Sequence record: NZ_CP081674.1
Strand: one strand, 5' to 3'
DNA: 64,000 bases
DNA from: a plasmid
Below, one piece after another: positions 99 to 58,300 of the stretch; within the stretch, counting starts at the first letter, position 1, and each line of letters starts with the position of its first letter. The translations under genes and the position numbers were made by a program. The notes under the pieces were generated by a model. The model worked only from the letters and a program-made list of their open reading frames with translations. It ran no database searches and had not been told where the DNA came from.

Positions 99-259
99 AA
101 CAGGTTCGACGCAGCGTTGGCGCGTTTGGTTCCACTGACCCGGAGCGCTTCCTCAACCCGCCTTCCCCAGCCTGATGCTGCACGCCACCGCATCGAGTTT
201 TCGGTGGAGTTGGGGTGGGTGTTGGAGGTTGGTGGTGGTGTTCGTTCATACTGCGGGGC

Positions 260-1333
260 ATGTCACTTGATGCGCTTGTGGCCGAGGCCGGTCAGGTGCT
301 CGGTGACGCGCGCAAGATGTTTGGGCCTGCGCCGGCGGCCGGCGGATGGTCGAGCACACCGGCGCTGAGCGCTGGTAAGGACAGTTTGGCCCAGGCCGGG
401 GGAGTGCTGGCGGGGTGGGGCGGAGCGAGCGCGACGACGCATCTGTCGGCCAGCGGCGGTCGTGTGGTGGCTCTGGACAATGTGATCGGCGCTGATCGAG
501 GAACTGCGCCGGGTTTCACGGGGGCGGCCCAGACCTCTCAGTCTGGTGGTGGCGGGATGGACGACGTCAACGCCGACACGCGTAGGGGAGTGGCTGCGAT
601 TGCTCCGAGCACCGACACCCCGGCCGGTAAGACGCAGCTGGTCAATCATCTGCAGTCCCAGCTCGACCGTGCCAAAGCGTTGCTCAAGGTTTCCGAGTCG
701 CGCAACGTGATGCTGGCCAATGCGATTCGCAGCGCTGCAGGAGGCTATGGCGGCGGTATGCCGATGGGTGGCGGTATGGGTGGCCCGATGGGCGGCGGGA
801 TGCCCATGGGTGGCGGGGGAATGGGCGGTGGTGGACTACCCGGCCTCGGCGGCGCCGGCCTGATCCCCAACCTCTCCGCCTTCACCCGCGGCGCTGGCTT
901 CAAGAGAAGCGGACCCGGCGGAACATTGGGAGGGCCGGGCACGGCGGCGCTGGCCGGTTCCGGCGGCGGACCTCTGGCCCAGTCAGCGGTCAAAGCAGCG
1001 CTGTCCAAACGCGGAACCCCCTACGTATGGGGCGCTAAGGGTCCCAACGTGTTCGACTGCTCCGGGCTCACCCAGTGGGCATGGCGGCAAGCCGGCGTCA
1101 CACTCGGCCCCGACACCTATAGCCAGGTAAAACAGGGTCTACCCGTGGCCCCCGGTGATGCGCAGGAAGGCGACATCATTTTTCCGAAAGGGTCATGGGG
1201 TGACAGGGGGCCAGGCCACGTCATGCTGGCCATTTCGCCTACCCAGGTGGTGCACGCGCCTCAAACCGGCGACGTCGTCAAGGTCGCGCCGATGCCCGCC
1301 GATTTCGTTGCTCGTCGTCCCGTCGCTGCCTGA
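260..1333 (+). CDS. NlpC/P60 family peptidoglycan hydrolase with a Gly/Met-rich repeat linker
   Basis: The C-terminus (GTPYVWGAKGPNVFDCSGLTQWAW...GHVMLAI...HAP) is a typical NlpC/P60 Cys-His core. The central region has GGMPMGGGMGGPMGGG repeats. The start was moved to the ATG at 260 (MSLDALVAEAG). Confidence 0.8.
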   Translation: MSLDALVAEAGQVLGDARKMFGPAPAAGGWSSTPALSAGKDSLAQAGGVLAGWGGASATTHLSASGGRVVALDNVIGADRGTAPGFTGAAQTSQSGGGGMDDVNADTRRGVAAIAPSTDTPAGKTQLVNHLQSQLDRAKALLKVSESRNVMLANAIRSAAGGYGGGMPMGGGMGGPMGGGMPMGGGGMGGGGLPGLGGAGLIPNLSAFTRGAGFKRSGPGGTLGGPGTAALAGSGGGPLAQSAVKAALSKRGTPYVWGAKGPNVFDCSGLTQWAWRQAGVTLGPDTYSQVKQGLPVAPGDAQEGDIIFPKGSWGDRGPGHVMLAISPTQVVHAPQTGDVVKVAPMPADFVARRPVAA

Positions 1334-5558: not shown

Positions 5559-5702
5559 ATGGCCACGACACTCTGCACCGATCAACGTCCGGTCGCGGCT
5601 CGACCGCCCGCACCTGCGCCCGACCTCGCCGACAATCTCACTCTCATGCTGACCGCGCGGCGCCGCCGCCACCTGCGCCGCTCCGCCTGGACGACACGAT
5701 GA
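5559..5702 (+). CDS. small Arg-rich protein (47 aa) translationally coupled to the downstream MTase
   Basis: RBS ggtgaaagga 6 nt upstream of the ATG. The stop overlaps the MTase start (ATGA). Confidence 0.3.
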   Translation: MATTLCTDQRPVAARPPAPAPDLADNLTLMLTARRRRHLRRSAWTTR

Positions 5703-6823
5703 CCCGGGCACACAAGTATCGCGTGTCCACACTCGATCGCGCCCAGCACAGCGCGCCCCGTCCCACCCTGTCACCGTACTTCCGCGACGACCAGGTGACG
5801 CTGTACCACGGCAAGGCGCTCGACGTCGCACGCGAACTGCCCAGTGGCTCAGTGGATTGCATCGTCACCAGCCCGCCATATTTCAACCTCCGCGACTACG
5901 GTGCCGAAGGACAGTACGGGCTGGAGTCAACACCAGCGGAATACGTTGCCAACCTTCGAGACCTCTTCAGCGAGCTGCGCCGCGTCCTCACCGACGACGG
6001 CACCCTATGGCTCAACCTCGGCGACACCTACAGCACCCGTGCTGACGCTTCAGCTGGGCCAACCTCAGGACGCAGCCGACCCGACGTCATGCCCGGGCGA
6101 ATCAACACCACCGGCACCATCGGCCGGAAGCAGCTCCTCGGAATCCCCTGGAGGGTGGCCTTCGCGCTCCAGGATGACGGCTGGATCCTGCGCCGAGACA
6201 TCGTCTGGGAAAAGCCCTGTGCCAAACCCGAAAGTGTCACCGATCGACCGTCATCACGACACGAATATGTCTTCCTGCTCACGAAATCACCGAACTACTG
6301 GTTCGACCTCGACGCCATCCGCGAATCTCACGCTGAGACCAGCATTAAAAGGGTAGCCGCCCACCGCTCACCAACAGGACGCGCTGCCCGTGAAGGCAAA
6401 CCCTATGTCGGAGAAGGGAAGCGGGAAACGATGCGCCTCGACCAAATGAACCACCCCCGAGGTCGCAACCCCGGCGACGTCTGGTCGATCAGCACCATCC
6501 CATTCCCACACGCTCATTTCGCCGTCATGCCACCCACACTGGCCCAAAAGTGCGTCATCGCCGGATACAAACCCGGAGGGATCGTCCTCGATCCGTGCAA
6601 CGGTGCAGGAACAACCGGCCTGGCAGCCCAACGCACCGGGCGCCGATACATCGGCATTGATATCAACGCCGACTACCTCGACCTCTCACTACGCACACGT
6701 CTGCGCGACGCCACATTGGACTTCTGCGTCGTCGACTCCGCCGCCGACATGCCCGAACCCAACGGCGATGGCCACGACACAGCCCCCACTCTCTACAGCA
6801 TCGCAAGCGAAGACGCATCGTGA
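5699..6823 (+). CDS. beta-class DNA methyltransferase (N4-cytosine or N6-adenine)
   Basis: Motif IV DCIVTSPPY (SPPY) near the N-terminus and motif I LDPCNGAGTTGLAA near the C-terminus. No adjacent restriction endonuclease. Confidence 0.85.
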   Translation: MTRAHKYRVSTLDRAQHSAPRPTLSPYFRDDQVTLYHGKALDVARELPSGSVDCIVTSPPYFNLRDYGAEGQYGLESTPAEYVANLRDLFSELRRVLTDDGTLWLNLGDTYSTRADASAGPTSGRSRPDVMPGRINTTGTIGRKQLLGIPWRVAFALQDDGWILRRDIVWEKPCAKPESVTDRPSSRHEYVFLLTKSPNYWFDLDAIRESHAETSIKRVAAHRSPTGRAAREGKPYVGEGKRETMRLDQMNHPRGRNPGDVWSISTIPFPHAHFAVMPPTLAQKCVIAGYKPGGIVLDPCNGAGTTGLAAQRTGRRYIGIDINADYLDLSLRTRLRDATLDFCVVDSAADMPEPNGDGHDTAPTLYSIASEDAS

Positions 6824-7745: not shown

Positions 7746-8555
7746 ATGAGCGCCGTCAACCCTCGCGCGGCGGCGGCCCGAGCTCGCCGTAAAGCCCTTG
7801 CCGAGCAGGGATGGCGGAACTTCTGCGCCGCGCTGGGCTACCCAGATCCCGACACCATCACCCAGGAGAGGACAATATGGCAGGAAAGCGACGCACAGGT
7901 CCGGGCCAAGATCAGCCCGATCTGTTCAGCATCCTCGACGGGGAAGGTGGCAGTGACCAGCCCGGAGATACGCCAGATCGTGGACAACATCTACAGCCAG
8001 CACCTCCAACTACCCCAGAACTGGACCGCCGGCCAGCGCGAGAAGTTCCTGGAGAACGAGGCTTCGCGGATCAGCCTGCAGATCGCGGACCTAGCAGCCC
8101 AAATGGGGGAGCAGGCCGTTCAACACTGGCAGAACCAGAACGGTCACCCGCCGGACTATCTGACCAAAGTCGGGCTGCTGAACAACGCCCGGTCGCAGGC
8201 GATGGAAACAGTGCTCAACAACGAACTCTACGAACAGATTCCCCAGACCGAGGACCCCAACGATCTCGAAGCACCGACGACCGAGACACTGGCTCGCAGC
8301 CAGGTGCCCTGGGATCAGCGCTGGACGAGCCCCCGGTATCGCAGCGAGCCCAGCGAGCAGATCGAGGACCTGGCCGCGGCGATTTGGCCGGCCCCGGATT
8401 TCTCGGCGGTGTTTCGGATCAAGGCGCAGTATCTGCTGGCGGCCCGCGCCGAGGACCAGCTTCCGCTGCCCACCCATCAGCACGACCCGCTGGCCGCGAC
8501 ACTGGCCGACCTGGTCTACAACGATCTGCGCCACGACGGCCTGCCAGAGCGCTAG
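7746..8555 (+). CDS. hypothetical protein (269 aa), possibly the N-terminal part of the downstream MTase-helicase
   Basis: Strong RBS aaggagg 5 nt before the ATG at 7746. Codon third-position GC is high and the amino-acid composition is diverse in this frame across 7746-8552. Confidence 0.55.
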   Translation: MSAVNPRAAAARARRKALAEQGWRNFCAALGYPDPDTITQERTIWQESDAQVRAKISPICSASSTGKVAVTSPEIRQIVDNIYSQHLQLPQNWTAGQREKFLENEASRISLQIADLAAQMGEQAVQHWQNQNGHPPDYLTKVGLLNNARSQAMETVLNNELYEQIPQTEDPNDLEAPTTETLARSQVPWDQRWTSPRYRSEPSEQIEDLAAAIWPAPDFSAVFRIKAQYLLAARAEDQLPLPTHQHDPLAATLADLVYNDLRHDGLPER

Positions 8556-20509: not shown

Positions 20510-21607
20510 TTACACCATGGTGAGGTGTCGGGTGACGGGTTGATCGCTGGCGGTGCGAAATAGGTCAGCGCGTTGTGTGCTTGTGAGCAGGGTGATTTCG
20601 TCGAGTTCGGCGTTGGTGTATCCGGCCGCCAGGAGTTGTTCGAGCACTGAGCTGGTGAGTTTGGGTTGTTCGGCGGCGACGCCGGCCCGGTTCCCGTACA
20701 TGCGGCCGGTCTCGTTGAGTAGCCGGAACATGGATCGGTACTGATAGTCGGAGAGGATGCCGCGTTCGCGGGCACGCATGACCAGTGACGACACGCTCAC
20801 ACCCCAGGTCAGGCGCAGCTCGTCGAGTTCGTGGACGGTGCGAATGGAGACCCGGTCCAGGTCGAACGCGATGTCATCGATGGGCGCCAGGAATTCGGCG
20901 GCGAAGGCGGTGGCTCGGCGTTCGGTCTCTGTTGGGCTGACCAGGGTCATCGCGTCCATCACGAGGTGGCCGAGTTCGTGGGCGAGGGTCATCCGCATGC
21001 GGTCGGGAGGCAGGGCTGCGTTGACGTACACCAGATGCGGATGGTGCTGGTTTGCCCGCAGGGTTACGGCGTCGATCTCGCGGTCGGCGAAGTCTTCGAG
21101 GATAACGAAAACTCCTGCGGCTTCCAGTAATTCGGCCATGGAACGGATCGGGCCGGCCACCCGCCAGAGGCGCCGCAGTACCTGCGCGGCGGTGATTTCG
21201 CCGTGCTCGGCGGCGTAGTCAGCGGGGTCGAGTTCGGGGAGCGCGAGCAGAGGTTCGATGTCCGCACGCGCTTCGATGCGCCCGAGCCGCATCGCGATGA
21301 GGTTCGCTCGCGCCCACACGCGGTCACGTTTCCACTCCGCGGTGCTGGCATTGGCGCGGAAGTGGGTGCCTTCGGCCGGCGACCGGGTGAACGGGACGCA
21401 CAACGCCTCGGGTGGGCACTGCAGGACTCGCGCGTAATCGAGCAGGGCTTTCCCGGCCAGAGGCAGGACACCGGATTCGACCTTGCTTACGTGTGACGCC
21501 GATACACCGACCTGGTCGGCCAACTTCTTCTTCGACCATCCGCAGGCGAGTCTGGTCAGCTGCACCATCACGTTGTTCGCCTCAGCGTAGGGCTCCGGTG
21601 CCGTCAC
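20510..21607 (-). CDS. XRE-HTH and ImmA/IrrE family metallopeptidase fusion regulator
   Basis: N-terminal HTH (KKKLADQVGVSASHVSKVESG) and an HEXXH zinc motif (LAHELGHLVMD). Confidence 0.8.
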   Translation of the reverse strand: MTAPEPYAEANNVMVQLTRLACGWSKKKLADQVGVSASHVSKVESGVLPLAGKALLDYARVLQCPPEALCVPFTRSPAEGTHFRANASTAEWKRDRVWARANLIAMRLGRIEARADIEPLLALPELDPADYAAEHGEITAAQVLRRLWRVAGPIRSMAELLEAAGVFVILEDFADREIDAVTLRANQHHPHLVYVNAALPPDRMRMTLAHELGHLVMDAMTLVSPTETERRATAFAAEFLAPIDDIAFDLDRVSIRTVHELDELRLTWGVSVSSLVMRARERGILSDYQYRSMFRLLNETGRMYGNRAGVAAEQPKLTSSVLEQLLAAGYTNAELDEITLLTSTQRADLFRTASDQPVTRHLTMV

Positions 21608-21875: not shown

Positions 21876-22604
21876 GTGACGGCGCTCTTTGAGGATTCCG
21901 AGCCGCGGGACCGCGCGGTGTCGCGTAAGGAGGCGACCCGCTTGCTGCGGCAGGTCACTACCGGGGTCGCAGCGCTGCTCCTTGCCGCTGTCGATGACTG
22001 GAATGCCCTGTCCGAGCGGCACGCTGCGCACCTGCGCACCGAGTTGCACGGGCTGCTCCGGGGTTCGCATGTCGCCGGTCTCACTGCGGCAAGCACTGCG
22101 GTGTGGCTGGGCACGCAGGGCATGCACCCGCCTGGTCATATCGTGTCGAAACCGCATCGGTGGCCGATGATCAGCAGCCACGGCAAGACCTACATGGCCA
22201 TCCACCACTACGAGATGGAACCGACCAATGCGCGACGCACCGCGTTCTGCAACCAGGACTCCGAAACCTTGCGGCTCATCGATGCCGAAACCTCGTCTCT
22301 GATAGGCAATCCCACGCATTGCGAATTGACGTGGGACTACGACCCTTACACCGATGCGCACATCCGCCGGATCTGGGTCAGCGCCCCCAGCGTCGACTGG
22401 GCCAGATTCGAAGTTCCCATGGCCAAAGCCCAAGCCCAGCTCGCGTCCTGGCGCAAGCGCAAGATGAAGTGGCTGCCAGGAGAGCTGCCCGCCGACATGC
22501 ACGCGGTGGCACCGTTGCCGGCCCGCGACGCACAGGAGCGCCTCCAGCCAGGCATCGAGATTCAGCCGCCGCAGCGCTCGAAGGACGCCGGGGACGCCCA
22601 GTGA
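21876..22604 (+). CDS. hypothetical protein upstream of the recombinase trio
   Basis: GTG start with gaaagg RBS. The stop overlaps the tnpA-like GTG (GTGA). Confidence 0.45.
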   Translation: MTALFEDSEPRDRAVSRKEATRLLRQVTTGVAALLLAAVDDWNALSERHAAHLRTELHGLLRGSHVAGLTAASTAVWLGTQGMHPPGHIVSKPHRWPMISSHGKTYMAIHHYEMEPTNARRTAFCNQDSETLRLIDAETSSLIGNPTHCELTWDYDPYTDAHIRRIWVSAPSVDWARFEVPMAKAQAQLASWRKRKMKWLPGELPADMHAVAPLPARDAQERLQPGIEIQPPQRSKDAGDAQ

Positions 22605-23713
22605 GGGCGGCGCCGGTGACCGTGCACGGGCAACCGTCGTGGACGGTGGTCGACGATCATGGGTTGCCGATCGCAGAGGTCGAGCAGTTCCTGCACTGGT
22701 TGCGGGCGGTGGGACGCTCACAGAACACCGTCCGGTCCTATGCACGGCATCTGAGCTTGTTCTACCGGTGGCTCTCGGCACGCGGAATCGCTTGGGATGC
22801 CGTCGTCTTCGACGGGTTGTGCGACTTTGTCGGGGCGCTGTCAGTGGGATTGCCGCCGCTGCAAACCTGGCGTAACGGCCGATCACCAGCAACGGTGAAA
22901 GCAGTCAGCGCGGGCATCCGAGAGTTCTACGAGTTCCACCGGGTCGAAGGCCGGGGACCGCTCGACTTGGTGCTGACCCGCAACCCGTCGAGGCTGCCGC
23001 GCCGATCGCACAGCTTCCTCGCACACGTCGAGCGGCGCCGCCCCAGCGAGGTGTCACGCTTGACGAGACCGGGCAAGGCTGCAGCGGAGACGGTGCAGGT
23101 GATCGACTTCGAGACCGACTTCACGCGGCTACTGGAGTCAGCGTCCACTGACCGGGACAGGCTGCTGCTCTCTGCCCTGTATGACCTGGGGCTGCGGGTG
23201 GGGCAAGCGTTGGGGCTGCGCCACGGTGACCTGGACCCGATGCGCCGACGAGTGCGGGTCTGCCGCCGGGAAGACAACCAGAACGGGGCCTTGTCCAAGC
23301 AGCGGGCGCAGTTCACCGTGGAGGCACCGCGGCGCTTTTTCGACCTGTACGCCGCATACCTGCTCGGCGAACTCGCCGATGTGGACAGCGATTACGTGTT
23401 CGTGAACCTGTCCCGGCGCCCGCGGGGTGGTCCGTTGTCGTACTCGAACGCCTACCAGCTGGTGGAGCGCATCGGCACCTCCGCCGGCGTCGACGACCTG
23501 CATCCCCACATGCTGCGTCACACCCACGCCACGGCGCTGGCGCGGGCCGGATGGACGGCCGCCGAGATCGCCGCCCGACTCGGCCAATCGCACGCCGCCA
23601 GCGCCGACGTGTACATCCACCTTGCCGGCGATGATCTGGCCGAGCGGCTGCGCCGTACCGAGCATCTGGTGTGGCGGGCACCGCAGAACAGGGCTGGCAA
23701 TGACACGCGGTGA
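22601..23713 (+). CDS. tyrosine recombinase (Tn554 TnpA-like)
   Basis: C-terminal HPHMLRHTHATALARAGWTAAEIAARLGQSHAASADVYIHL (R..H..R.H...Y box). Confidence 0.75.
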   Translation: MRAAPVTVHGQPSWTVVDDHGLPIAEVEQFLHWLRAVGRSQNTVRSYARHLSLFYRWLSARGIAWDAVVFDGLCDFVGALSVGLPPLQTWRNGRSPATVKAVSAGIREFYEFHRVEGRGPLDLVLTRNPSRLPRRSHSFLAHVERRRPSEVSRLTRPGKAAAETVQVIDFETDFTRLLESASTDRDRLLLSALYDLGLRVGQALGLRHGDLDPMRRRVRVCRREDNQNGALSKQRAQFTVEAPRRFFDLYAAYLLGELADVDSDYVFVNLSRRPRGGPLSYSNAYQLVERIGTSAGVDDLHPHMLRHTHATALARAGWTAAEIAARLGQSHAASADVYIHLAGDDLAERLRRTEHLVWRAPQNRAGNDTR

Positions 23714-25706
23714 GTCCCGGACCGAATCCCGCGGCGTGCGCTCCCATCCGACACTGCGGGTCCCCGACGGCCCATGGTGCCAGCCGACCTGGCAGGTGGT
23801 CGAGGTGGCAGGGGATCGCCGCAGGCAGGCCGTCGACCCATGCGCGGTCGACGGCTGCGACGGCCCCCAATACTGGCTGGGCGGCCCCCGCAGCAACTCC
23901 GCCGCCACGTCAGGACTGTGCTACGCGCACTACTTCCAATGGTTCCGCGCCGGCCAGCCGGCCGACTTCACGGCCTGGGCCCAGACCGGGTCGACACCGG
24001 TAGGGCCGCCACGCGGCCGCACTTGCACCCAAGTAGTCGACTTCCGTCGGTTCCCGCCGACGGCTGCCGACGAGGTCCGGTTCGTCGTGGCCACCAAGGT
24101 CGGGAGAGGCGACTGGACGCCCAACGCCAGCCTCCGCCGCGTCCTCATGGTGCTCGTCGATGCGGCCGACGGCCGGGTCACGGATTCGCTGACCGAACGG
24201 CCCGTGCACGATTGGCTTCTGCTCTGCCGACAGCACTGGCCGCATGCCAGCTCGTTCGACACGCTGTGCGCACCGTACATCCGGAGCTTCTTCCGCCTGC
24301 TCGACGGCGCCACCAACCCCGACGCGTGGACCAGCGATCATTGGCACTGGCGCGATCAATTCGAGTTCGTCCTCGACGCCACCCAATCGGGATCCACGCA
24401 CACCGCCGTCGACTGGTCATCGGTACCGGTGCCCTGGCTTAAGGTAGCCGTCAAAAAGCTTGCACGACAACAGCTCACCACCGCCACCCTGTCCTGGGGA
24501 ACCCTCACCCAATGGGTGCGCGCCACCCGCCAGCTGGCCCGATTCCTCACCACCGACGGCACGGTTCCCGATCCACCCTCGGTGACCCGTTCGCTGTTCC
24601 TTGACTACCTGGCCTGGACCCGCCGTAGCGACACCGACGCGGACGCCCGGTTGGCCAACACCGGCGCATACCTGCTGGAGTCGTTGCACGAGACCGGGCT
24701 CGTCTGCGACCTGGGCTCGGCGATGTTTCTGCGCCGCGGCGAGAACGTCCACCGCAAGACTCGCAACCCTCGCCCGTTCCCGCCGGACGTCGTCGAGCGC
24801 ATCGACACCCTGATCGTCGACAACCCCGAAACCGACCCGACACTGCGGGCGATGATTGCCACGACGCGATGGGCGGGCTGCCGAATCTCCGAACTGGTCG
24901 CCCTCCCGCTCGACTGCCTGCACCACTGCGACGGGGGCTACTGGATCGAGTACTGGATGACCAAAACCAACGCATGGCGCCGGTTTCCCATCCCAGACAC
25001 CTTGGCCACCGTCATCTTGGCGCAGCAGACCCGCGTTCGAGACACCTACGGCCCCGAGGCCACGCACCTGTTCCCCGGGGCGCGATCGAGCGCCGCCGTC
25101 GGACGCACACAGCCCTGGTCCACCAGCGGTCTGCGGCACCGTCTCTCAGTCCTTTTTCGCGAACATGGAATCATCTCGTCGGCGATCACCGGTGAGCCGA
25201 TCTCCGGAGGGGACGTCCACCGATTCCGGCACACCGTCGGGATGACCCTGCTCAACAACGGATGGACCCAACAGGAAGTGCGCGACTTCCTCGGGCATCA
25301 GAGCGACACCATGACCTCGACGTACGCTCGGATAACCGACGACACGCTGGCCCGCAAGGCACGCGAATTCTGGGACAACAAGCCCGAGAACCGGTCTGGG
25401 GGCGACGCGGGTGTTGAGCGGCTCCGCGCACGATTCGCCGCGGCCCTGCCCAACGGGTTCTGCACGCTGCCGTCGGCGCAACGCTGCGAGTTTCGGCCCA
25501 ACCCCTGCCTGGACTGCTCCTTCCACGACCCGGGCGGCCGGGTCTTCCTCGGCGCTCATATCGTTCACCGAGACCAACTGCAGCGCCTCACCGACGATGC
25601 TCGTGAACGCGGTGACACCGAAGCGGTCGAGCTGAACACGACCATGCTCGCCAAAGTCACCAAGCTGATCGCCGAACTCGACCCCGACAGCCCGGAACGC
25701 CCGTGA
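23700..25706 (+). CDS. large tyrosine recombinase (Tn554 TnpB-like, 668 aa)
   Basis: C-terminal HRFRHTVGMTLLNNGWTQQEVRDFLGHQSDTMTSTYARI. Overlaps tnpA-like by 14 nt. Confidence 0.75.
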   Translation: MTRGESRTESRGVRSHPTLRVPDGPWCQPTWQVVEVAGDRRRQAVDPCAVDGCDGPQYWLGGPRSNSAATSGLCYAHYFQWFRAGQPADFTAWAQTGSTPVGPPRGRTCTQVVDFRRFPPTAADEVRFVVATKVGRGDWTPNASLRRVLMVLVDAADGRVTDSLTERPVHDWLLLCRQHWPHASSFDTLCAPYIRSFFRLLDGATNPDAWTSDHWHWRDQFEFVLDATQSGSTHTAVDWSSVPVPWLKVAVKKLARQQLTTATLSWGTLTQWVRATRQLARFLTTDGTVPDPPSVTRSLFLDYLAWTRRSDTDADARLANTGAYLLESLHETGLVCDLGSAMFLRRGENVHRKTRNPRPFPPDVVERIDTLIVDNPETDPTLRAMIATTRWAGCRISELVALPLDCLHHCDGGYWIEYWMTKTNAWRRFPIPDTLATVILAQQTRVRDTYGPEATHLFPGARSSAAVGRTQPWSTSGLRHRLSVLFREHGIISSAITGEPISGGDVHRFRHTVGMTLLNNGWTQQEVRDFLGHQSDTMTSTYARITDDTLARKAREFWDNKPENRSGGDAGVERLRARFAAALPNGFCTLPSAQRCEFRPNPCLDCSFHDPGGRVFLGAHIVHRDQLQRLTDDARERGDTEAVELNTTMLAKVTKLIAELDPDSPERP

Positions 25707-48381: not shown

Positions 48382-50115
48382 ATGCTCGAAATAATGGATT
48401 GGTTCTGCGGGGCCGGAGGCTCGTCACAGGGTATGCACGCCGTACCGCACGTCCGGGTCACCAAGGCGGCCAATCACTGGGACAAGGCGATCGAGTCGCA
48501 CGCTGCCAACTTCCCCGACACCGACCACTACCTCGGCGACATCCGCGAGGCCCCCGTGGCGAAATGGCCCGTCGCAGACATCTTCTGGGCATCACCCGAA
48601 TGCCCACAATGGTCAACGGCACGAGGTAAAAAGCGCGACTTCGACGCGACGCTGCAGGGCGACCTGTTCGACACCCCACGCGACGAAGAGGCCGATCGCT
48701 CCCGCGCCCTCATGGAAGAAGTCCCGATGTACCTGCGCGGCGTCATCGAACGCGGTGGCCGAGTCCGGGCCGGGGTGGTCGAGAACGTCGTCGAGGTACG
48801 CGCATGGGACCAATGGGACCGCTGGATCGGCGAGATCCGCAGCCTCGGCTACCGAACCCGCGTCATCGCTATGAATTCCATGCACGCTCAACCAGGCCGC
48901 ACGCTGCCAGCCCCACAGTCACGCGACCGCCTCTACGTGGCCTACTGGGACAAAGCCCTGCGCCGCGAACCCGACTGGGACAAATGGCTCCGACCCCGCG
49001 CGTACTGCACGACATGCGACGAATGGATCGACGCGATCCAGGTGTTCAAGAAGCCCGGCGCCGACATGGGCCGCTACCGCAGCCAGTACGTCTACAGGTG
49101 CCCCCACGTGGCATGCCGCAACGCCATCGTCGAACCACCAGCCATGCCCGCCGCCGATGCAATCGACTGGACACTGCCCGGTGAGCGCCTCGGCGACAAG
49201 CCGCTACGGGAATTCAGGAACAAGGACACGGGCAAGGTGGTCGTCGCCCCGCTCGCCCCTAAGACGATGGCTCGGATCACGGCCGGAATCGAACGCTACT
49301 GGGCCCCGTTTATCACCGAGCACCGGCACGAGTATCGAGTCCGTGGTGTCGATGTACCGCTGCAAACCGTGGCGGCCGCGGGCAACCACTTCGGCTTGGC
49401 CGTGCCGATCGAAGGCCGCGACGGCAAGGTCGCCGCCCCGGTCGAGCTGCCTCTGAGGACCGCCACCACCCGCAACGAAACCGCCCTCGTGGTGCCGTGC
49501 GGCGGAACCTGGCGCGATGCAGCCACTACCGCCAACGTGCCGATATCGACCCGCACCACACGCGAATCCGACGGCATCGCCTTCCCCCCGTTCGTCGCCG
49601 AATTGCGCGGCGGCGCAAGCGACGTCCGCTCTGTCAACGACCCTCTCGCGACCGTCACAGCCTCGGGCAACCACCACGGACTCATCACCAGCTACTACGG
49701 CAACGGAAGCACCCACAGCACGGACGAAGCCCTCGCTACGGTCACCGCGATCCACCGGCACGCATTGCTGATGCGCAACAACGGAGTTCGCGGAGGACAC
49801 CCGGCCCGCCACACCACGCCCATCGATGAGCCAGCACGCACCGTCACTACCTCCGGGCACCAGTCACTACTAACCGCCCACGCACTGCCCATCGACCTCA
49901 GCGACGTGCTCTTCCGCATGCTGGAACCGCACGAGATCGGCCGCGCAATGGCCTTCGGACGCAACTACGTCGTCCTCGGAAACAAGCGCCAGCGAGTCCG
50001 CCAGTACGGCAACGCCGTCACTCCCCCGGTCGCCGGAGTCATCGTGTCAGCACTCGTCGAGGCAATCACCGGCGAAACGATCGAGCGATGGCCACACGAC
50101 CTGGCTGCGGCCTAG
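48382..50115 (+). CDS. DNA (cytosine-5)-methyltransferase
   Basis: Motif I DWFCGAGG, motif IV SPECPQWS (PC), motif VI ENV, and the C-terminal QYGNAVTPPVA. RBS gaggagg. A large variable region. Confidence 0.85.
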   Translation: MLEIMDWFCGAGGSSQGMHAVPHVRVTKAANHWDKAIESHAANFPDTDHYLGDIREAPVAKWPVADIFWASPECPQWSTARGKKRDFDATLQGDLFDTPRDEEADRSRALMEEVPMYLRGVIERGGRVRAGVVENVVEVRAWDQWDRWIGEIRSLGYRTRVIAMNSMHAQPGRTLPAPQSRDRLYVAYWDKALRREPDWDKWLRPRAYCTTCDEWIDAIQVFKKPGADMGRYRSQYVYRCPHVACRNAIVEPPAMPAADAIDWTLPGERLGDKPLREFRNKDTGKVVVAPLAPKTMARITAGIERYWAPFITEHRHEYRVRGVDVPLQTVAAAGNHFGLAVPIEGRDGKVAAPVELPLRTATTRNETALVVPCGGTWRDAATTANVPISTRTTRESDGIAFPPFVAELRGGASDVRSVNDPLATVTASGNHHGLITSYYGNGSTHSTDEALATVTAIHRHALLMRNNGVRGGHPARHTTPIDEPARTVTTSGHQSLLTAHALPIDLSDVLFRMLEPHEIGRAMAFGRNYVVLGNKRQRVRQYGNAVTPPVAGVIVSALVEAITGETIERWPHDLAAA

Positions 50116-51113: not shown

Positions 51114-51380
51114 ATGTCCGTCACCGTGTACACCAAGCCCGCATGCGTGCAGTGCAACGCCACCTATAAGGCGCTGGAAAAGCAGGGCATCGCGTTCGAG
51201 AAGGTTGACATCACTGTCGACAGCGAGGCCCGCGACTACGTCATGGCGCTCGGCTACCTGCAGGCCCCGGTAGTGGTGGCCGGCAACGAGCACTGGTCGG
51301 GCTTCCGGCCCGATCGGATCAAGACACTCACGAATCCGGAGACGGTATCCACCGCCGATGCAAGTGCGGTGTCCGCATGA
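51114..51380 (+). CDS. nrdH: NrdH-redoxin (glutaredoxin-like)
   Basis: CVQC active site and a WSGFRPD C-terminal motif. RBS ggag. Confidence 0.75.
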   Translation: MSVTVYTKPACVQCNATYKALEKQGIAFEKVDITVDSEARDYVMALGYLQAPVVVAGNEHWSGFRPDRIKTLTNPETVSTADASAVSA

Positions 51381-51778
51381 CTTCCGGTGTGATCGACCCC
51401 TGGTCCTCCCATTCCGGCCCACGACCGGTGTTCGACGATGAGCTGTCGGACACCGACAAGTTCGTCGATTACGCGGCCGCCATGAATCACTACGCGGGGC
51501 CGTTCTGCTCCTGCGGCGACTACTCCTGCCCTGCCAACAACGACTCCTCGGCACGCTGTGTGAACTACGACGATCCATTCGCTTACGTAGGTCGGTATCC
51601 GGAATCCTGGACCGACGAAGACATCGAGGCCTACGAAGCGACGGAACTGACCGAATCGCTCATCAGCGAGGCCCGGTGCACCGCCGAGGGCAACACCCTC
51701 CTCGCAGTCCAACGCATCAACGCACTCGGCGCCGACCTCGCCACGGCACCGGAGGGGTTGCGACGATGCACCGCCTGA
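51377..51778 (+). CDS. hypothetical Cys-rich protein
   Basis: ATGA overlap with nrdH. FCSCGDYSCPANN. Confidence 0.4.
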   Translation: MTSGVIDPWSSHSGPRPVFDDELSDTDKFVDYAAAMNHYAGPFCSCGDYSCPANNDSSARCVNYDDPFAYVGRYPESWTDEDIEAYEATELTESLISEARCTAEGNTLLAVQRINALGADLATAPEGLRRCTA

Positions 51779-52149
51779 CCATCGACCGAGCCGACCACGG
51801 AACAACCACCACCAGCGAGCATCCCGACGCTGCTGATGCCAAGCGCGCACTCGAGCGCTACGTCGAGCACGCGGGCTGCCGAACCGACACGATCCAGATG
51901 CACTCAGCTTTCAGTAGCTGGCAGCTCACCACTCTCGCCGGCAATCGTTTCCATGCCACCGCCACCATCGAATGCTGCAGTGCGGCGGCCTCTCACGCCA
52001 CAGACTTCGCTGTGCTCACAGCCATACGCGGCAGTGCTCTTGCGGTCGATACAGGCATCGCCTGCGTCGATAACTACGAGCGAGCTGCCGTTCAGCATCA
52101 GTGGGACAAACTCACCGGAGCTTCTCGGCATTTTCATCGTGCGAGCTGA
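51766..52149 (+). CDS. hypothetical protein (MHRLTID...)
   Basis: Overlaps the upstream gene. Weak paralog of the next gene. Confidence 0.35.
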   Translation: MHRLTIDRADHGTTTTSEHPDAADAKRALERYVEHAGCRTDTIQMHSAFSSWQLTTLAGNRFHATATIECCSAAASHATDFAVLTAIRGSALAVDTGIACVDNYERAAVQHQWDKLTGASRHFHRAS

Positions 52150-52180
52150 CCACGCAACCATCGCCCGAGACGGACTAGCC

Positions 52181-52492
52181 ATGCATGAGCTCACCATCAA
52201 CGCATCGACCGGACTCCTCACCAGTCGGCACAACAATTTCGCCTGGGCACGACGAGCGCTGCTCGCCCATGCCCGGCTCAGTGATGTGTATCTGCACTCT
52301 CTGCAATGCGATGTAGACCCCGGAACGGCGACGTTCGAACTTGTCAGTTTCGACGCCACAGGACGGTGTCCCCGTGTCACGGGGACCGCGCAGATCGGAC
52401 CGGCGTCGCGACCTGATCAATCGCACGTTGAACCATTCGAATCGACACACCGGCCGCAACATCACTCACGAGAGGAACACGATCAACGATGA
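52181..52492 (+). CDS. hypothetical protein (MHELTIN...)
   Basis: Tandem weak paralog of the preceding gene. Confidence 0.35.
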   Translation: MHELTINASTGLLTSRHNNFAWARRALLAHARLSDVYLHSLQCDVDPGTATFELVSFDATGRCPRVTGTAQIGPASRPDQSHVEPFESTHRPQHHSREEHDQR

Positions 52493-52815
52493 CCACCTTC
52501 AACCGGCCTTACGTTCTCCAACTGGCAGTCGCTCTGATGGTCCCCCAGCACGACGACGAGTACTACCGACGCATCCGCCAAACCGCTGAGGCCAACGGCG
52601 TCCCGCCCGAGCAGCTCGACCGCGCGGCATTCATCGTTGATGGGGTACGCAAAGGCGGTACCGATATCGATGAGTGGATCCGCCAGGAGTACATCGTTGA
52701 CGGTTGGTTGCAGGGCTATGTGCCGCTCGAAGCTTCGCCCACCGACTCACAATGGTCGACCTATCACCTAGCGCACTTGGCCGAGGATCACTACCGCCGT
52801 CAACCAACTATCTGA
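52489..52815 (+). CDS. hypothetical protein
   Basis: ATGA overlap with the upstream gene. 108 aa. Confidence 0.4.
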   Translation: MTTFNRPYVLQLAVALMVPQHDDEYYRRIRQTAEANGVPPEQLDRAAFIVDGVRKGGTDIDEWIRQEYIVDGWLQGYVPLEASPTDSQWSTYHLAHLAEDHYRRQPTI

Positions 52816-52839
52816 AGCCTGGCTACGCGCCGTTCTGGG

Positions 52840-53385
52840 TCAGAACAGTCGTGGGTGAACGCCCAACAGTGCCTCGCGCACTGCTTCGGCATTCCAGCCG
52901 TCGCGCACCGCGTCACGAAGGGCAACGGACCGTTCCCGACGCGCCTCGCGACCTAGCCCGCGAATCGACGGCCTGCCGCCGCCGCGGCGGCCCCGTCCCA
53001 TCCGCAACATGTTCTCAGACTGCGTGCCCGCGACGACATGCTGGCGTACCGATTCCGGCGGACTGATTTTCACGCAGATCGGATTGTCGCAATCGTGCAA
53101 GGCGAACACATCCGCGCTCAGCGGCCGGCCCGTAGCCATCGCCAATGCGTACCGATTCGGACGCACACAGAATCCTGTGCCCGATCGCGTGATGAAGAAC
53201 CTGCCATAGCCGTCCGCGCCAATGGCGCCCACCCAGATGCTGCAGTCATCCGCCTCGGGACCGATAACGACATAACTGCAAAACCGCGCGCACTCCGCTG
53301 GGTGTACCCGAGGGTCCACCCAGAGTGCGTGAACGTGGTCCTCAAGCCCATTCACGAGCCGTACGCTACCGATCCGCCCGGACAC
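52840..53385 (-). CDS. HNH endonuclease family protein
   Basis: HDCDNPICV...H...N pattern of the HNH motif. Confidence 0.65.
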   Translation of the reverse strand: MSGRIGSVRLVNGLEDHVHALWVDPRVHPAECARFCSYVVIGPEADDCSIWVGAIGADGYGRFFITRSGTGFCVRPNRYALAMATGRPLSADVFALHDCDNPICVKISPPESVRQHVVAGTQSENMLRMGRGRRGGGRPSIRGLGREARRERSVALRDAVRDGWNAEAVREALLGVHPRLF

Positions 53386-53415
53386 GTTGTCGTGTGCGAA
53401 TTCGCGTACCCGCGT

Positions 53416-53958
53416 TCATCGTTGGCTTCCCAACATTTCCCCCGCGCTCGTGGGCTCTTCCCGCTGCGCCTGGGCCTCAACCGAAACACCCTGCCCGGCG
53501 TCCGAAGATGCCTCGACGCCTCGGTCACCTAGTGCTTGCGGATCTTCCGGCGACACGGCCCGTGGTTCGCCGGAACCTAGTGCCTGCGAACGGCTCCCGG
53601 CGGCGTCTCGAAGGCTCGGAGTCTGGGCGGCCAGTTTGATGTAGCTGCGGACCAACTTTTCCGGGACATCCCCCAGCGCGGCGATGTCTTTGATGGTCTC
53701 CCCCCGTGCCTTCAGGCGGGCCAGCGCCTTGGCGCCTTCCACCCGTTGTTCGTGGCGCCGCTGCTCAGCTTCACCTCGTACCTGCGCAAGGTGCTCGGCC
53801 TCCCAACCGTCGACGGCCTGAAGCTTCTGTTCAGCCAGCAGGAACGCCACCATGTCCTCGCGGTTGTCCGATTCCCTTTTGAGCCGTTCCTGCTGAGCTC
53901 TGGTCTGCGCTTCGCGGACCTTGCGGCGTACATCGCTCCGAGACTCGATCTTGGCCAT
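53416..53958 (-). CDS. coiled-coil hypothetical protein divergent from the relaxase
   Basis: Charged heptad-like region (RRKVREAQTRAQQERLKRESDNRE...). Confidence 0.4.
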   Translation of the reverse strand: MAKIESRSDVRRKVREAQTRAQQERLKRESDNREDMVAFLLAEQKLQAVDGWEAEHLAQVRGEAEQRRHEQRVEGAKALARLKARGETIKDIAALGDVPEKLVRSYIKLAAQTPSLRDAAGSRSQALGSGEPRAVSPEDPQALGDRGVEASSDAGQGVSVEAQAQREEPTSAGEMLGSQR

Positions 53959-54264
53959 GGTGCGGACCGTACGGCGGCGCGGCGGGCCGAGTCCAACAGT
54001 AGCTCCACATTCGCCCTGATCGAATTTTCTTTCCCTCCACACCGATTGAGCTTTGCGCGATCTGAGTTTGATGCTCCGGTCCCACCTCAGCGTGGCTCTG
54101 TCATCGCGATCCACCAGTATTTCGAAGCCACCCGAGCACCCCCGCCGGCATCCAGCCGCCGTCTACCCAAAGCCACACACCTCTTGCACTCAGGATCACA
54201 GTTCGATAACGATCCCAGGGCTACTGTTGGATTTGACGTGCGTCAAGTTTCTAACGTGCGGCTC

Positions 54265-55293
54265 ATGACGGCCACGCTGCACAAACTCACCGCCGGTGAT
54301 GGCTACCTGTATCTGATCCGCCAGGTCGCTGCGCACGACACCACCGAGCGCGGACGCAACACCCTCTCCGATTACTACTCGGCCAAAGGTGAATCCCCCG
54401 GCCGCTGGGTTGGCAAGGGGTTGGCATCACTGTCGTATACCGGGGTACGTGGCGTATCCCAACAGGTCAAAGACGAGGTCTGGACGGTACCCGAAGGGTC
54501 CGAGGTCACCGAGGAACAGATGGCAGCACTGTTCGGGGAAGGGTTGCACCCCAACGCCGTTGACATCGCCAACCATCAGGTAGGTCGAGGCGCACCTGCC
54601 CACGTCGCGATCAAGGCGGCTCATCTGGGCCGGCCATTCACCGTGCGCAGCGGGGCGACCGAGTTTCAAAAGGCACTCGCGGTCGCCTACCGCGAGTACA
54701 ACGCCGAGCACGGCAAGCGATGGAACGCACCCATCCCTGACGAGGTCCGTGCCCGACTGCGCACCACCATCGCGCGTGAACAATTCAGCGAGGAATACGA
54801 CCGCGAGCCCGCCGATGACCGCGAGCTTTCCGGCTTCATCGCGCGCAACTCACGGCTACCTACCACCGCCGTCGCCGGCTACGACATCACGTTCTCACCG
54901 GTGAAATCGGTGTCGACGCTGTGGGCCATCGCCCCCCTGGATGTGTCGGCCGCGATCGAAGAGTGCCACGACGCCGCGGTGACAGATTCGTTGGCGTTCA
55001 TCCAACAAAACGCCGCGTTCACCCGCATCGGTGCCGGCGGTGTCGCCCAAGTGGATACGACAGGCCTCATCGGAACAGCCTTCACACACCGCGATTCGCG
55101 CGCGGGTGACCCGGATCTGCACACGCACGTGGCGATTTCGAACAAGGTCGCCTACATCGACGCACACGGCGTGCAGCGTTGGCTGGCGCTGGACGGACAA
55201 CCCCTGCACCGCATGATGGTGAGCGCTTCTGAGCTCTACAACACCCGACTCGAGGCGCATTTGGAGGAGCGCCTCGGGCTGCGATTTCGCTGA
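54265..55293 (+). CDS. traA: MobF/TrwC-type relaxase, N-terminal relaxase domain (first part of a frameshifted traA)
   Basis: YYSAKGESPGRWVG (catalytic Tyr region) and HRDSRAGDPDLHTHVAISN (3-His motif). Confidence 0.8.
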   Translation: MTATLHKLTAGDGYLYLIRQVAAHDTTERGRNTLSDYYSAKGESPGRWVGKGLASLSYTGVRGVSQQVKDEVWTVPEGSEVTEEQMAALFGEGLHPNAVDIANHQVGRGAPAHVAIKAAHLGRPFTVRSGATEFQKALAVAYREYNAEHGKRWNAPIPDEVRARLRTTIAREQFSEEYDREPADDRELSGFIARNSRLPTTAVAGYDITFSPVKSVSTLWAIAPLDVSAAIEECHDAAVTDSLAFIQQNAAFTRIGAGGVAQVDTTGLIGTAFTHRDSRAGDPDLHTHVAISNKVAYIDAHGVQRWLALDGQPLHRMMVSASELYNTRLEAHLEERLGLRFR

Positions 55294-55354
55294 GGTCACA
55301 CCCCCCGGCCGCAACAAGCGACCGATCCGCGAGATTGTCGGCGTCAGCACCGAA

Positions 55355-58300
55355 TTGATGGCGCGCTGGTCGTCGCGACGCCAAGCGATCGAAGCACGCA
55401 CCGCCGAGCTGGCCAAGCAGTTCCAAGTCGACCACGGCCGCGAGCCCACCAACATCGAGGCAATCGCGCTGGCACAGCAGGCCACACTCGAATCGCGCGA
55501 GGCCAAACACGAGCCACGGTCGTTGGCCGAACAACGCCAAACGTGGCGGGTCGAAGCCATCGAAGTACTCGGCAGTCAACGCGCCGTGACCCGAATGATC
55601 GGGCAGTCACTGTCAGCGGCCCGACGACGCCGCCGCGCCGCGGTGACACCGGATTGGGTCACCAACCAGGCGCACAAAGCCATCGCTGTCGTCTCGGAAT
55701 CACGAGCGACCTGGCAGCGCCACCACGTCCTAGCCGAAGCGCAACGCATTGTGCGTGCCACCGGCCATGCCAGCTCGGTCGATCTGGCCGAAAAGATCAC
55801 CGCCGCAGCGCTCGACGAGCCGATCTCGCTGCCACTGGCGCGCATCAACGATGGCGACCGAGACGAACCAGCCGCGCTGCGCCGCCGTGACGGCACCAGC
55901 ATCTACACCCGCGACGGCGCCAAGCTCTACACCTCGGCTGCCGTGGTGGCCGCCGAGCGGCGCATCCTGCACACCGCCACTCTCACCGACGGTCGTATCG
56001 TCACCGACCAGGATGTCGAGTTTGCGCTGGCCGACTCCGCCGCGCGTGGCAAGAAACTCAACCCCGGGCAGGTCACGCTGGTGACTGAAATGGCCACCAG
56101 TGGCCGGCGACTGGCGCTTGCCCTGGCCCCGGCCGGTGCAGGAAAGACCACTGCGATGGCTGCCCTGTCGCAGGCATGGCGCTCATCGGGCGGGCGCGTG
56201 ATCGGTCTGGCGCCGACCGCGGCCGCCGCAATCGAACTCGGCAACGATCTGGGCGCGTCGACCGACACCCTCGACAAGTACATCAACCTCATCGACAACC
56301 CGTCCAACTCGATTGTGCCGCAGTGGTTCGACCAGGTCGATGAATCGACACTGCTCATCATCGACGAGGCCGGAAAAGCCGGAACACTACAACTGGACAC
56401 CGTCATCGCTCACGCGATCGCCAAGGGCGCCAGCGTGCGGCTGGTCGGAGATGACGGACAGATCGCCTCGATCTCGGCAGGCGGTGTACTGCGCGACATC
56501 GCCGCCGAAACCGATGCCCTCACGCTGTCGCAGCTGGTGCGCTTCGTTGCCCCCGAAGAGGGCGCAGCCTCACTCGCGCTACGCACGGGCGATCCCGCTG
56601 GCATCGGCTTCTACATCGACCACCAACGGGTGCATGTCGGTGCCGACGAAACCGCCGCCGAGATGGCTTTCACCGCATGGTTGACCGACACCCGCGCCGG
56701 GCGCGACAGCCTGCTGCTGGCCCCCACCAACCCCATAGTCGATGACCTCAACGCCCGCGCTCGTACCGCCCGGCTCTCGGCCGCGTTCGCCGACAAGCCG
56801 CGCTACCGCATCGGCCGCGGAACCATCCTGTCCGACCAACTAGCCGCTTCTGCCGGTGACATCATCCGCACTCGCGAGAACGCCCGCTGGCTGCGCCTGA
56901 GTACCACCGACTACGTCCGCAACGGCTACCGCTACGAGATTGTCGAAGTCCACCCTGACGGATCGCTCGACGTGCGCCACCTCGGCACCGACCGCACTTT
57001 GACCCTGCCCGCCGACTACGTCACCGAGCACGTCACCCTCGGCTACGCCACCACCATCGACTCCGCCCAAGGACTGACCGCCGGCTACAGCTGCCACGTC
57101 GTGGGCGCCGAACACATCACCCGCCAATTGCTCTACGTCGCGCTCACCCGCGGCCGTGAACAAAACCACGTGTATCTGTCGACGGCAGAACATGATCCGC
57201 ACCGCGTCCTATCTCCCAAGGCAACCCACCCCGACACCGCTGTCGATGTGCTCACCAAGATCCTGGCCCGCGACGGAGCCCAAATCTCGGCCACCACCGC
57301 AGAGCGCGTGGCAGCCGATCCATTTGCTCGCCTCGCCGCAGCCGCCGAGATGTATCAAGACGCCGTCGGCACCGCCGCCGAGATTTACGCCGGCCCCCAG
57401 GTGATGGCCGTCATCGACGAGCAGGCCGAGACCGTTCATGCCGGCCTGACCGAACAGGCCGCCTGGCCCACGCTGCGCAAACACCTGGCCATCATCGCCG
57501 CCAGCGGCGGCGACCCGATCCAGCAACTCACCGCCGCCGCGAGCAAACGCGAACTCGGCTCCGCGTTCGACGTCGCCGCGGTGCTCGACTGGCGCCTCGA
57601 TGAAACGGGCCGGCATAGCGCCGGAACCGGACCGCTGGCCTGGCTATCAGCCGTACCCCACTCGCTCCGCCGCCTACCCGAATGGGGCGAATACCTCAGC
57701 GCACGAGCCACACTCGCCACCGAGCTTGCCGACCAGATCCGCACAACGGCGCGGGCATGGACACCGGCCACCGCCCCGCAATGGGCACGGCCCCTCATCG
57801 ACGCCGATCCCGTACTGGTTGCCGAGATCGCCGTCTTCCGAGCGGCCTTCCGGGTCGCACCCGAAGACAGCCGACTCCTCGGCGCCGACCAGTACGCCGT
57901 CCGCGCCCGCAAGGTTCAACGCGACCTGCAGCAAGCCGCCACCCACGTCATCGGCGCTCGTGTTCCAGCCACCCACCAGTTCGCCGAACTCATTGACTCC
58001 ATCGATCCGCGTCTGCGTGCCGACAGCTACTGGCCCCAACTGGCCAATCACCTCGCTGAAGCCGCACCCAGCCGCCCCGACCTGGCCACACTCGTTCGTC
58101 AGACTGCCGCAGATCGGCCCCTTCCCGACGAGCTGCCCGCCGCCGCCCTCTGGTGGCGGCTATCAGGCAAGCTCAGCCATACCGCGACCCTGGAAACCCC
58201 AGACGCGCACCTGCGCCCAGCCTGGATCAGCCATCTCCGCAGCGTCTTTGGCTCCGCCGTCTCCGAAACCATCAGCACCGACCCCGCGTGGCCGGCACTG

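Follow-up and report, generated by a model that had tools for sequence, protein, structure and literature searches.

Organization of the relaxase gene

The stretch analysed here, 64,000 nt of the plasmid record NZ_CP081674.1 (the window, to whose positions all coordinates refer), carries a traA/mobF gene for a conjugative relaxase–helicase that is divided between two open reading frames (ORFs; Table 1). ORF1 most likely starts at its first ATG (MTATLHKLTAGDGYLYL...), and it contains the catalytic features of the relaxase: an N-terminal Tyr region (GDGYLYL), and the His motif HRDSRAGDPDLHTHV, which aligns to the His triad region of TrwC. The exact ORF1 protein is WP_280639580.1, named 'MobF family relaxase', from M. 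farcinogenes. Its frame ends in ...EERLGLRFR*, at the TGA where the original prediction, a reading of the same DNA without database searches, had placed it; the letters at 55270–55299 are cgcctcgggc tgcgatttcg ctgaggtcac, and by 0-frame codon positions 55279–55299 read ...CTG CGA TTT CGC TGA GGT CAC.... A second frame is open from 55223 to 60169 and reads ...SGCDFAEVTPPGRNKRPIREIVGVSTELMARWSSRRQ... / ...DFAEVTPPGRNKRPIREIVGVSTELMARWSS.... Deletion of one T joins the two into a single protein of 1,967 amino acids (aa) that starts at the ORF1 ATG, much as had been anticipated (about 1,970 aa), although the T run itself lies one base to the right of the 55284–55286 first given, namely at 55285–55287.

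The Pfam TrwC profile (PF08751, 286 positions) runs across both ORFs: positions 1–208 are matched in ORF1 (1.4e-62) and 208–285 in the upstream extension of ORF2 (3.7e-14), the latter bearing out the earlier observation that the downstream homology begins ahead of the first ATG of ORF2. The NCBIfam MobF profile (NF041492, 299 positions) is divided in the same manner, with positions 2–223 in ORF1 and 219–296 in the ORF2 extension (176 bits). The break is, therefore, within the relaxase fold and not in a conserved linker, as the original prediction had supposed; in other words, the uninterrupted relaxase frame of the MOBF family is here broken at profile position 208 of 286. The junction aligns to approximately residue 213 of the 293-residue relaxase domain of TrwC (PDB code: 1omh). 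For the intact relative P0158, an AlphaFold model (mean predicted local distance difference test score 81) matches the TrwC and TraI structures over its whole length (PDB codes: 1zm5, 1omh and 3l57); in it, the corresponding F339|A340 junction is the first residue pair of a β-strand, which is followed by a second strand that bears the invariant R353 and E354, and then by two helices. The helicase half gives matches to AAA_30 (3e-56), AAA_19 and UvrD_C_2, all of them in the +1-frame part, and it shares one protein with the relaxase only if the frameshift is decoded.

Table 1. Coordinates of the divided relaxase gene, of the signals at its junction and of other features of the window
Feature	Position	Strand	Description
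ORF1, 0 frame	54265..55293	+	342 codons + TGA; N-terminal ~70% of TrwC/MobF relaxase fold
+1-frame part (ORF2)	55289..60169	+	1,626 codons + stop; C-terminal ~30% of relaxase fold, AAA_30/AAA_19/UvrD_C_2 superfamily 1 (SF1) helicase, long C-terminal region
Whole traA/mobF gene, proposed as recoded	54265..60169	+	predicted trans-frame product of 1,967 aa
Predicted RNA hairpin	55249..55278	+	CUCGAGGCGC / AUUUGGAGGA loop / GCGCCUCGGG; 10-bp stem, ends 6 nt before UUU
G-rich, Shine–Dalgarno (SD)-like GGAGGAG	55263..55269	+	hairpin loop + first base of 3' arm; 15–17 nt upstream of UUU
Proposed +1 shift site CGA UUU C	55282..55288	+	Phe codon UUU 55285–55287, C 55288
0-frame stop TGA	55291..55293	+	separated from UUU by one codon (CGC); throughout monophyletic split clade
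22 +1-frame codons (AEVTPPGRNKRPIREIVGVSTE)	55289..55354	+	shift site to first canonical ORF2 start (TTG 55355, ATG 55358)
Type IV coupling protein gene	60216–61673 (or 60216–61670)	+	T4SS-DNA_transf, TraG-D_C; directly after relaxase gene, its functional partner
NlpC/P60 hydrolase	215–1330		
DNA methylases	5699–6820 and 48382–50112		
2,072-aa helicase-like protein	7811–14026	+	weak ResIII, Helicase_C and SNF2 matches, C-terminal half only
IrrE-HTH regulator	20510–21604	−	just upstream of recombinase ORFs
Two overlapping Phage_integrase (tyrosine recombinase) ORFs	22103–23710 and 23427–25703	+	
tRNA-Ala(TGC)	28403–28474	−	~3 kb from recombinase genes

Distribution and age of the frame break

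The frame break is real, and not a sequencing error. An independent read assembly, the Logan assembly of SRR15372744 (L006), is 100% identical to window positions 51137–63293 (12,157 nt). When species-representative genomes were scanned, M. houstonense DSM 44676 (L005) proved to share the site in full, within 11.6 kb of 95.5% identity. The break recurs unchanged (...UUU CGC UGA...) in M. farcinogenes, houstonense, conceptionense, fortuitum, wolinskyi, mageritense and syngnathidarum, and in Mycobacteroides abscessus, i.e. on roughly a hundred contigs from eight named species and two or more genera, and the carrier proteins, drawn from RefSeq genomes and from many Logan, ENA and JGI assemblies, differ from that of the window by up to 24%.

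At 90% identity, the ORF1 cluster to which the window belongs comprises versions of 342, 351 and 408 aa, which all end ...RLGLRFR and are distinguished solely by where the start has been called; it spans M. farcinogenes, houstonense, conceptionense, fortuitum, wolinskyi and Mycobacteroides abscessus on dozens of contigs of up to 5.07 Mb, and the ORF2 cluster has the same species range. A search with ORF1 alone yielded five more clusters of exactly 342 aa, at 76–85% identity and ending ...RLGL[R/Q]FR, among them M. mageritense and M. syngnathidarum. In the four clusters whose contigs reach past ORF1 (P0152, P0153, P0154 and P0157), a long ORF2 follows, of 1,592–1,623 aa where complete and cut by the contig end in L010–L012; for P0151, only the site is readable, as its contig (L023; 1,144 nt) ends 68 nt after it. 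Over all six clusters, identities span 76–99%, and the ORF that follows is, where complete, 1,592–1,646 aa long. A megablast search of the PLSDB plasmids with 3 kb across the site returned only matches of 71–79%, all to single mobF genes, with no close relative among them. Likewise, of the 19 matches to TTTCGCYGARGTNANNCCNCCNGG in a scan of metagenome contigs, none was in a relaxase, and that collection added no carriers.

In the comparison with intact homologues that the original prediction had recommended, chance is no plausible explanation: more than 3,000 of them read ungapped through the junction as ...R-F-A-E/D..., and the carriers have one extra T. A single-base deletion would suffice to restore the frame. 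However, the best full-length match to a fused 760-aa query has only 78% identity, with partial matches reaching 82%, so that no revertant of the split clade has been sampled among 5.8 billion protein clusters.

When ORF1 is analysed by neighbour joining, every carrier with an immediate TGA falls into a single clade (192/200 bootstraps), whose sister clade is intact at the site, and the simplest reading of this topology is one old insertion, retained ever since. Between the split lineages, the synonymous divergence (dS) is 0.42–0.85, and the ratio of non-synonymous to synonymous divergence (dN/dS) is 0.10–0.26, with similar values in ORF1 and ORF2; a close pair, the window and L005, shows 17 synonymous versus 12 non-synonymous codon changes in ORF2. 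When one T is removed from five diverged carriers, the products, of 1,954–1,967 aa, are uninterrupted throughout. As judged from these ratios, both halves are under purifying selection, and the comparative data indicate that the frame break is kept by selection in mobile elements of at least eight mycobacterial species.

The point of the frame switch and the missing start of ORF2

All carriers have TTTCGC without variation, preceded by CGA or, in L023, by CAG, and TTT CGC TGA is invariant across the split members; intact relatives have CGN/CAN TTC GCC/ACC GA at this position. Residue F339, at the site, is invariant across the relaxase family. The TGA is conserved in the split clade because the Ala codon of the +1 frame is kept as the rare GCU, whereas the one sequence that lacks the TGA (L016, see below) has GCC in place of GCT. 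That a rare codon is conserved here, and with it the UGA, suggests selection for non-shifted ribosomes to terminate promptly.

The point at which the coding frame changes can be located from the polymorphism of seven carriers. Over the 60 nt before the TTT, the ratio of non-synonymous to synonymous polymorphism (pN/pS) takes a value of 0.075 when calculated in the ORF1 frame and exceeds 3 in either of the others; over the 57 nt after the C, it is 0.075 in the +1 frame, and there are zero synonymous changes in the ORF1 frame. Moreover, the joined sequence R-F-A-E is the family consensus. On this comparative evidence, the switch is between the Phe and Ala codons, at UUU_C.

The AEVTPPGRNKRPIREIVGVSTE segment, which carries the family invariants R353 and E354, lies between this point and the first ATG, GTG or TTG of the +1 frame, 70 nt downstream in every carrier. 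Upstream of the site, the +1 frame is open for only 22–24 codons, and it contains no canonical start (ATG, GTG or TTG) in the carriers other than a TTG at −35 in L023, and none that is conserved. Near-start codons are not conserved either: an ATT at −26 is lost in L011, and a CTG at −56 is confined to the window group. Since they evolve as coding sequence and no start codon is available, the AEVTPPGRNKRPIREIVGVSTE codons are evidently translated in the +1 frame, yet out of reach of a normal start. In the NCBI annotation, ORF2 is an 'AAA family ATPase' that starts at a CTG or ATT (window positions 55229 and 55334), giving lengths of 1,645/1,646 and 1,610/1,611 aa (WP_353962044.1, WP_324611260.1, WP_338066818.1 and others). 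These starts are an artefact of the unrecognized frame break, by which the homology upstream of the first ATG is covered.

Signals around the site

A hairpin is predicted immediately upstream of the site (Table 1). In the shifted sequences (the window, L007, L008, L011, L023 and L016), its minimum free energy is −17 to −20 kcal/mol, with z-scores of −2.1 to −4.2 relative to shuffled sequences, whereas the corresponding values for intact relatives (L013, L014, L024 and L001) are −7.6 to −12.2 kcal/mol and −0.2 to +1.0. Compared with synonymous recodings of the same peptide, the shifted lineages are in the most stable 0.3–5.7% and the intact ones are average. The G-rich motif is similarly confined: all of the shifted lineages have GGAGGAG, GGAGGGG or GGGGAG, where the intact relatives have GGCCAG, GGCCGG or GGCGAG instead. 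Additionally, when the first 995 codons are scanned in windows of 15 and 21 codons, synonymous diversity reaches its minimum at codons 325–345, around the site codon 341 (observed/expected 0.32). A search of positions 55000–55600 against Rfam at E<=1 gave no family match.

One further sequence bears on the association between hairpin and frame break. On the 1,353-nt contig L016 (JGI 3300078141), positions 1065–1075 have the same extra T (CGA TTT CGC CGA AGT) but no immediate stop, and by the ORF1 tree this sequence lies within the otherwise intact sister clade. The sequence still has the hairpin, whose longer stem shows an A-U pair in place of one C-G and G-U in place of two G-C pairs. Being a single observation, L016 could represent a second origin of the break, a recombinant sequence or an error.

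A probable programmed +1 ribosomal frameshift

The break, its age and its conservation, the purifying selection on both sides, the point of the frame switch, the missing start of ORF2 and the association with a hairpin are all shown by the data; that the ribosome makes the switch is inferred, as are the efficiency of shifting, any part played by the hairpin and the purpose proposed below. We consider it probable, at roughly 0.7, that the relaxase–helicase gene is decoded by a programmed +1 ribosomal frameshift at UUU_C. Ribosomes would read ORF1 up to the UUU, and, with this codon in the P site, the single tRNA-Phe (anticodon GAA; G:U wobble on UUU) would move forward by one nucleotide and re-pair on UUC, a codon to which this anticodon is the better match. 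Reading would then go on with GCU GAG GUC... to give the 1,967-aa ...RLGLRF-AEVTPPGRNKRPIREIVGV..., with a complete relaxase fold, the helicase and the C-terminal domain, whereas ribosomes that do not shift would read CGC and then UGA, releasing a 342-aa fragment without the last β-hairpin and helices of the relaxase fold. The candidate stimulator is the stable hairpin that ends 6 nt upstream, with its G-rich loop, and the likely purpose would be to hold the level of full-length relaxase, and hence transfer, low. Two features expected of a +1 site are present: a shift-prone P-site codon, UUU_C, and a conserved break with selection on both sides and the change of frame at the site.

A number of points weigh against this interpretation. 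The usual pause in the A site is absent, as the 0-frame CGC is the commonest Arg codon of the gene (97/161), and the UGA is one codon further on, not adjacent to the UUU. The SD-like GGAGG, 15–17 nt upstream, is far from the working 3-nt spacing of prfB. UUU_C alone does not define a shift site, since an in-frame UUU_C is also present at codon 134. The minimum in synonymous diversity is narrow (0.144 versus 0.149 elsewhere), the covariation of the hairpin is weak, its pairs being mostly invariant and only one change being clearly compensatory, and folding of 94 nt of the region gives an unexceptional result (z −1.44). Moreover, because the members of the split clade share their ancestry, the association of hairpin and frameshift amounts to approximately two events, the second of which is known from a single short metagenome contig (L016). 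All of the support for frameshifting is, in short, comparative.

Alternative routes to the protein

The most serious rival, albeit an unlikely one, is a true split gene, in which the 342-aa N-terminal fragment and a protein of about 1,600 aa, comprising the rest of the fold and the helicase, would be translated separately and reassemble non-covalently. The two halves are, indeed, both under purifying selection and always kept together, the NCBI pipeline annotates them as two genes and the TTG-ATG pair 70 nt downstream is conserved. However, the 19–22 codons upstream of this pair are coding-like in the +1 frame and hold R353 and E354, and with no conserved start codon in that frame at or before the junction, separate translation would need a non-canonical start right at the junction itself. 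In addition, no SD-like motif was seen by eye in the approximately 24 nt that precede the ATG, the break falls where a β-strand begins within the fold, and L016, which has the same extra base, has no ATG at that position. The original prediction named two separate genes with independent starts, in homologous elements, as what would overturn a single frameshifted gene: the two ORFs are indeed found there, but without a conserved independent start, and the coding-like evolution of the codons ahead of the first available one tells further against it.

A much less probable alternative is transcriptional slippage, whereby RNA polymerase would drop one U on the T3 run and so place a fraction of the mRNAs in frame. 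It would give the same protein and is expected to leave the same comparative signals, and the extra base does lie in a short homopolymer. Nevertheless, three T are far too few, as known bacterial polymerase slippage sites need runs of about 7–9 A or T; the conserved re-pairing logic of UUU_C and the upstream RNA hairpin also fit a ribosomal event. Thus, the 'slippage site' that had been listed among the possible explanations of the break survives as ribosomal +1 slippage, but not as slippage of the polymerase on the T run.

Equally improbable, in our estimation, is an inactivating frameshift, which would leave a dead relaxase in an element that is immobile or mobilized in trans, and which would have spread by descent or hitch-hiking. 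A 1-nt insertion that splits a catalytic domain has the classic look of a pseudogene, and there are sporadic breaks elsewhere in relaxase genes of the sister clade. Against this are the low dN/dS over substantial dS, with no second lesion in approximately 5.9 kb across five diverged lineages, the presence of the break in several species and more than one genus, and the synonymous constraint and hairpin centred on the site; the immobilizing mutation envisaged in the original prediction is rejected on these grounds. Nor does the monophyly obtained from the whole of ORF1 fit carriers that are recent recombinants of one small patch at the site, the sole circumstance in which a dead gene would have to be reconsidered. 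Finally, a homopolymer miscall in the sequencing or assembly of the window, also envisaged at the outset, is a practically negligible explanation: noise is plain to see in some related assemblies (L017 and L020 are separated from L018 by indels alone, and L024 is full of breaks), but the same base is present in a separate short-read assembly that matches the window exactly (L006), in the RefSeq genomes of several species and in many assemblies from Logan, ENA and JGI.

Three other mechanisms were considered and rejected. Slippage at CGC, with UGA in the A site, fails because tRNA-Arg(ICG) cannot re-pair on GCU, and it would give R-F-R-E where the family has R-F-A-E. Termination–reinitiation at the UGA would need a start or near-cognate codon close by, which the +1 frame does not offer, and L016 is without the UGA. 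Initiation at the AUU at −26, in the hairpin loop, fails as a general mechanism, as L011 has ACU there.

As regards the scattered breaks of the sister clade, L014 (at approximately 10033) and L015 (JGI 3300044816 and 3300044898) have a 1-nt loss at window-equivalent residue 1011/1012, L013 (at approximately 5896; ENA ERZ25039552) has an inserted C near residue 1066 and L024 (6860–12700; ENA ERZ25039541) has many breaks; all are intact at the UUU_C position. Since none of these is at a slippery motif or shared between lineages, they look like assembly errors or decay, and they provide a useful contrast to the conserved site. In the M. abscessus-type locus, L018 is set apart from L017 by 3 indels and from L020 by 1, with 0 substitutions in either case; this is assembly noise, and it alters the called length of ORF2 (1,550 aa in L017).

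Comparison with known systems

The closest precedent for the proposed +1 ribosomal frameshift is FseA (msi172-msi171) of ICEMlSymR7A from Mesorhizobium, where tRNA-Phe has been shown experimentally to shift by +1 from UUU onto UUC at the sequence UUUC (PMC4755241). The efficiency is 4–13%, a G-rich region upstream is conserved, relatives with one ORF occur alongside relatives with two, and the shift is thought to throttle transfer (PMC4755241). The relaxase gene has the same components: a conjugative element, two ORFs joined by a +1 shift (here predicted) at UUUC, an upstream G-rich region, an in-frame stop that would be bypassed, and single-ORF and two-ORF relatives side by side. The proteins, however, are unrelated: FseA is a small transcriptional activator of excision, from Proteobacteria, whereas here a 1,967-aa relaxase–helicase of the Mycobacteriaceae is broken within its catalytic fold. 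Furthermore, the FseA frameshift is proven, and that of the mycobacterial relaxase is predicted.

There is also a resemblance to prfB (CUU UGA C), in the re-pairing in the P site on a U-rich codon, the nearby 0-frame UGA and the purine-rich, SD-like sequence upstream. At the prfB site, the stop codon occupies the A site, and the SD is 3 nt upstream. The relaxase site (CGA UUU CGC UGA, with GGAGGAG ending 15 nt upstream of the UUU) is not of this type: CGC intervenes between UUU and UGA, the SD-like motif is 15–17 nt away, a 5' hairpin is the candidate stimulator and there is no autoregulatory logic through release factor 2 (RF2). A prfB-type, SD-driven +1 shift is ruled out by the spacing.

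With respect to a 5' hairpin, upstream refolding hairpins are known to stimulate +1 frameshifting on bacterial 70S ribosomes in reporters (PMC6321510, PMC3639245). Both the reporters and the relaxase gene have a stable hairpin just 5' of a +1-prone site, but in the former it is engineered, lies next to the E site and acts on CUU UGA without RF2, whereas the relaxase hairpin is natural, has a 6-nt spacer and is a putative stimulator.

In its architecture, the relaxase resembles the MOBF proteins TrwC (R388) and TraI (F, pKM101 and pCU1), and the actinobacterial TraA/MobF: the TrwC fold, seen in PDB entries 1zm5, 1omh and 3l57, with its N-terminal Tyr and His-triad motifs, is followed by an AAA_30/UvrD_C SF1 helicase. 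The homologues recovered from actinobacteria number more than 3,000. All of the solved or characterized members, and all relatives outside of the split clade, have a single uninterrupted ORF at this position. A survey of the Mycolicibacterium mobilome lists MOBF relaxases of approximately 1,859 and 1,001 aa, with no split described. Literature searches returned no report of a frameshifted or recoded relaxase, and the word relaxase is absent from the first 300,000 of the 429,602 characters of a 2016 recoding review. Thus, while the type of site (UUU_C +1 recoding) is known, the class of gene, the position inside a catalytic fold and the set of flanking signals would be new.

Implications for conjugative transfer

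Taken further, the comparative data lead us to favour, by a modest measure, a wider proposal: that elements of the M. fortuitum group and M. abscessus would make their relaxase only via a +1 cassette composed of UUU_C, a refolding 5' hairpin and a stop one codon later; that this would be the first recoding described in a conjugative relaxase, and a natural bacterial instance of a +1 shift stimulated by a 5' hairpin; that its efficiency would limit transfer; and that the 342-aa product might possibly be a regulatory oriT binder. If so, the relaxase, as the gatekeeper of conjugation, gains a translational control point over horizontal gene transfer. Little is understood of conjugation in mycobacteria, and M. 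abscessus, one of the carriers, is a pathogen that is hard to treat. For the recoding field, the locus would offer a UUU_C site that has neither a stop nor a rare codon next to it and that comes with a natural 5' hairpin, so that the idea of a hairpin stimulator becomes testable on a native gene. In practical terms, because such loci are called as a 'MobF family relaxase' and an 'AAA family ATPase' with invented CTG/ATT starts, predictors of mobility may mis-score the elements that carry them.

Genomic context

The remainder of the window carries further genes of mobile elements (Table 1). The two overlapping recombinase ORFs may constitute the element's integration module or else form a recombinase pair, and the tRNA-Ala gene nearby is a possible attachment site or boundary of the element. 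As the M. abscessus locus is found on chromosome-sized contigs, the element family includes integrated elements. The N-terminal 1,100 aa of the 2,072-aa helicase-like protein have no Pfam match, and the protein resembles the giant helicase/methylase-like proteins of conjugative plasmids. In the M. abscessus-type loci (L018–L022), the relaxase gene is followed by genes for HTH_3 and EspK_C-domain proteins, not by the coupling protein of the window, and MMPL and TetR genes lie approximately 4–6 kb upstream of it; these differing flanks place the same relaxase in differently organized elements.

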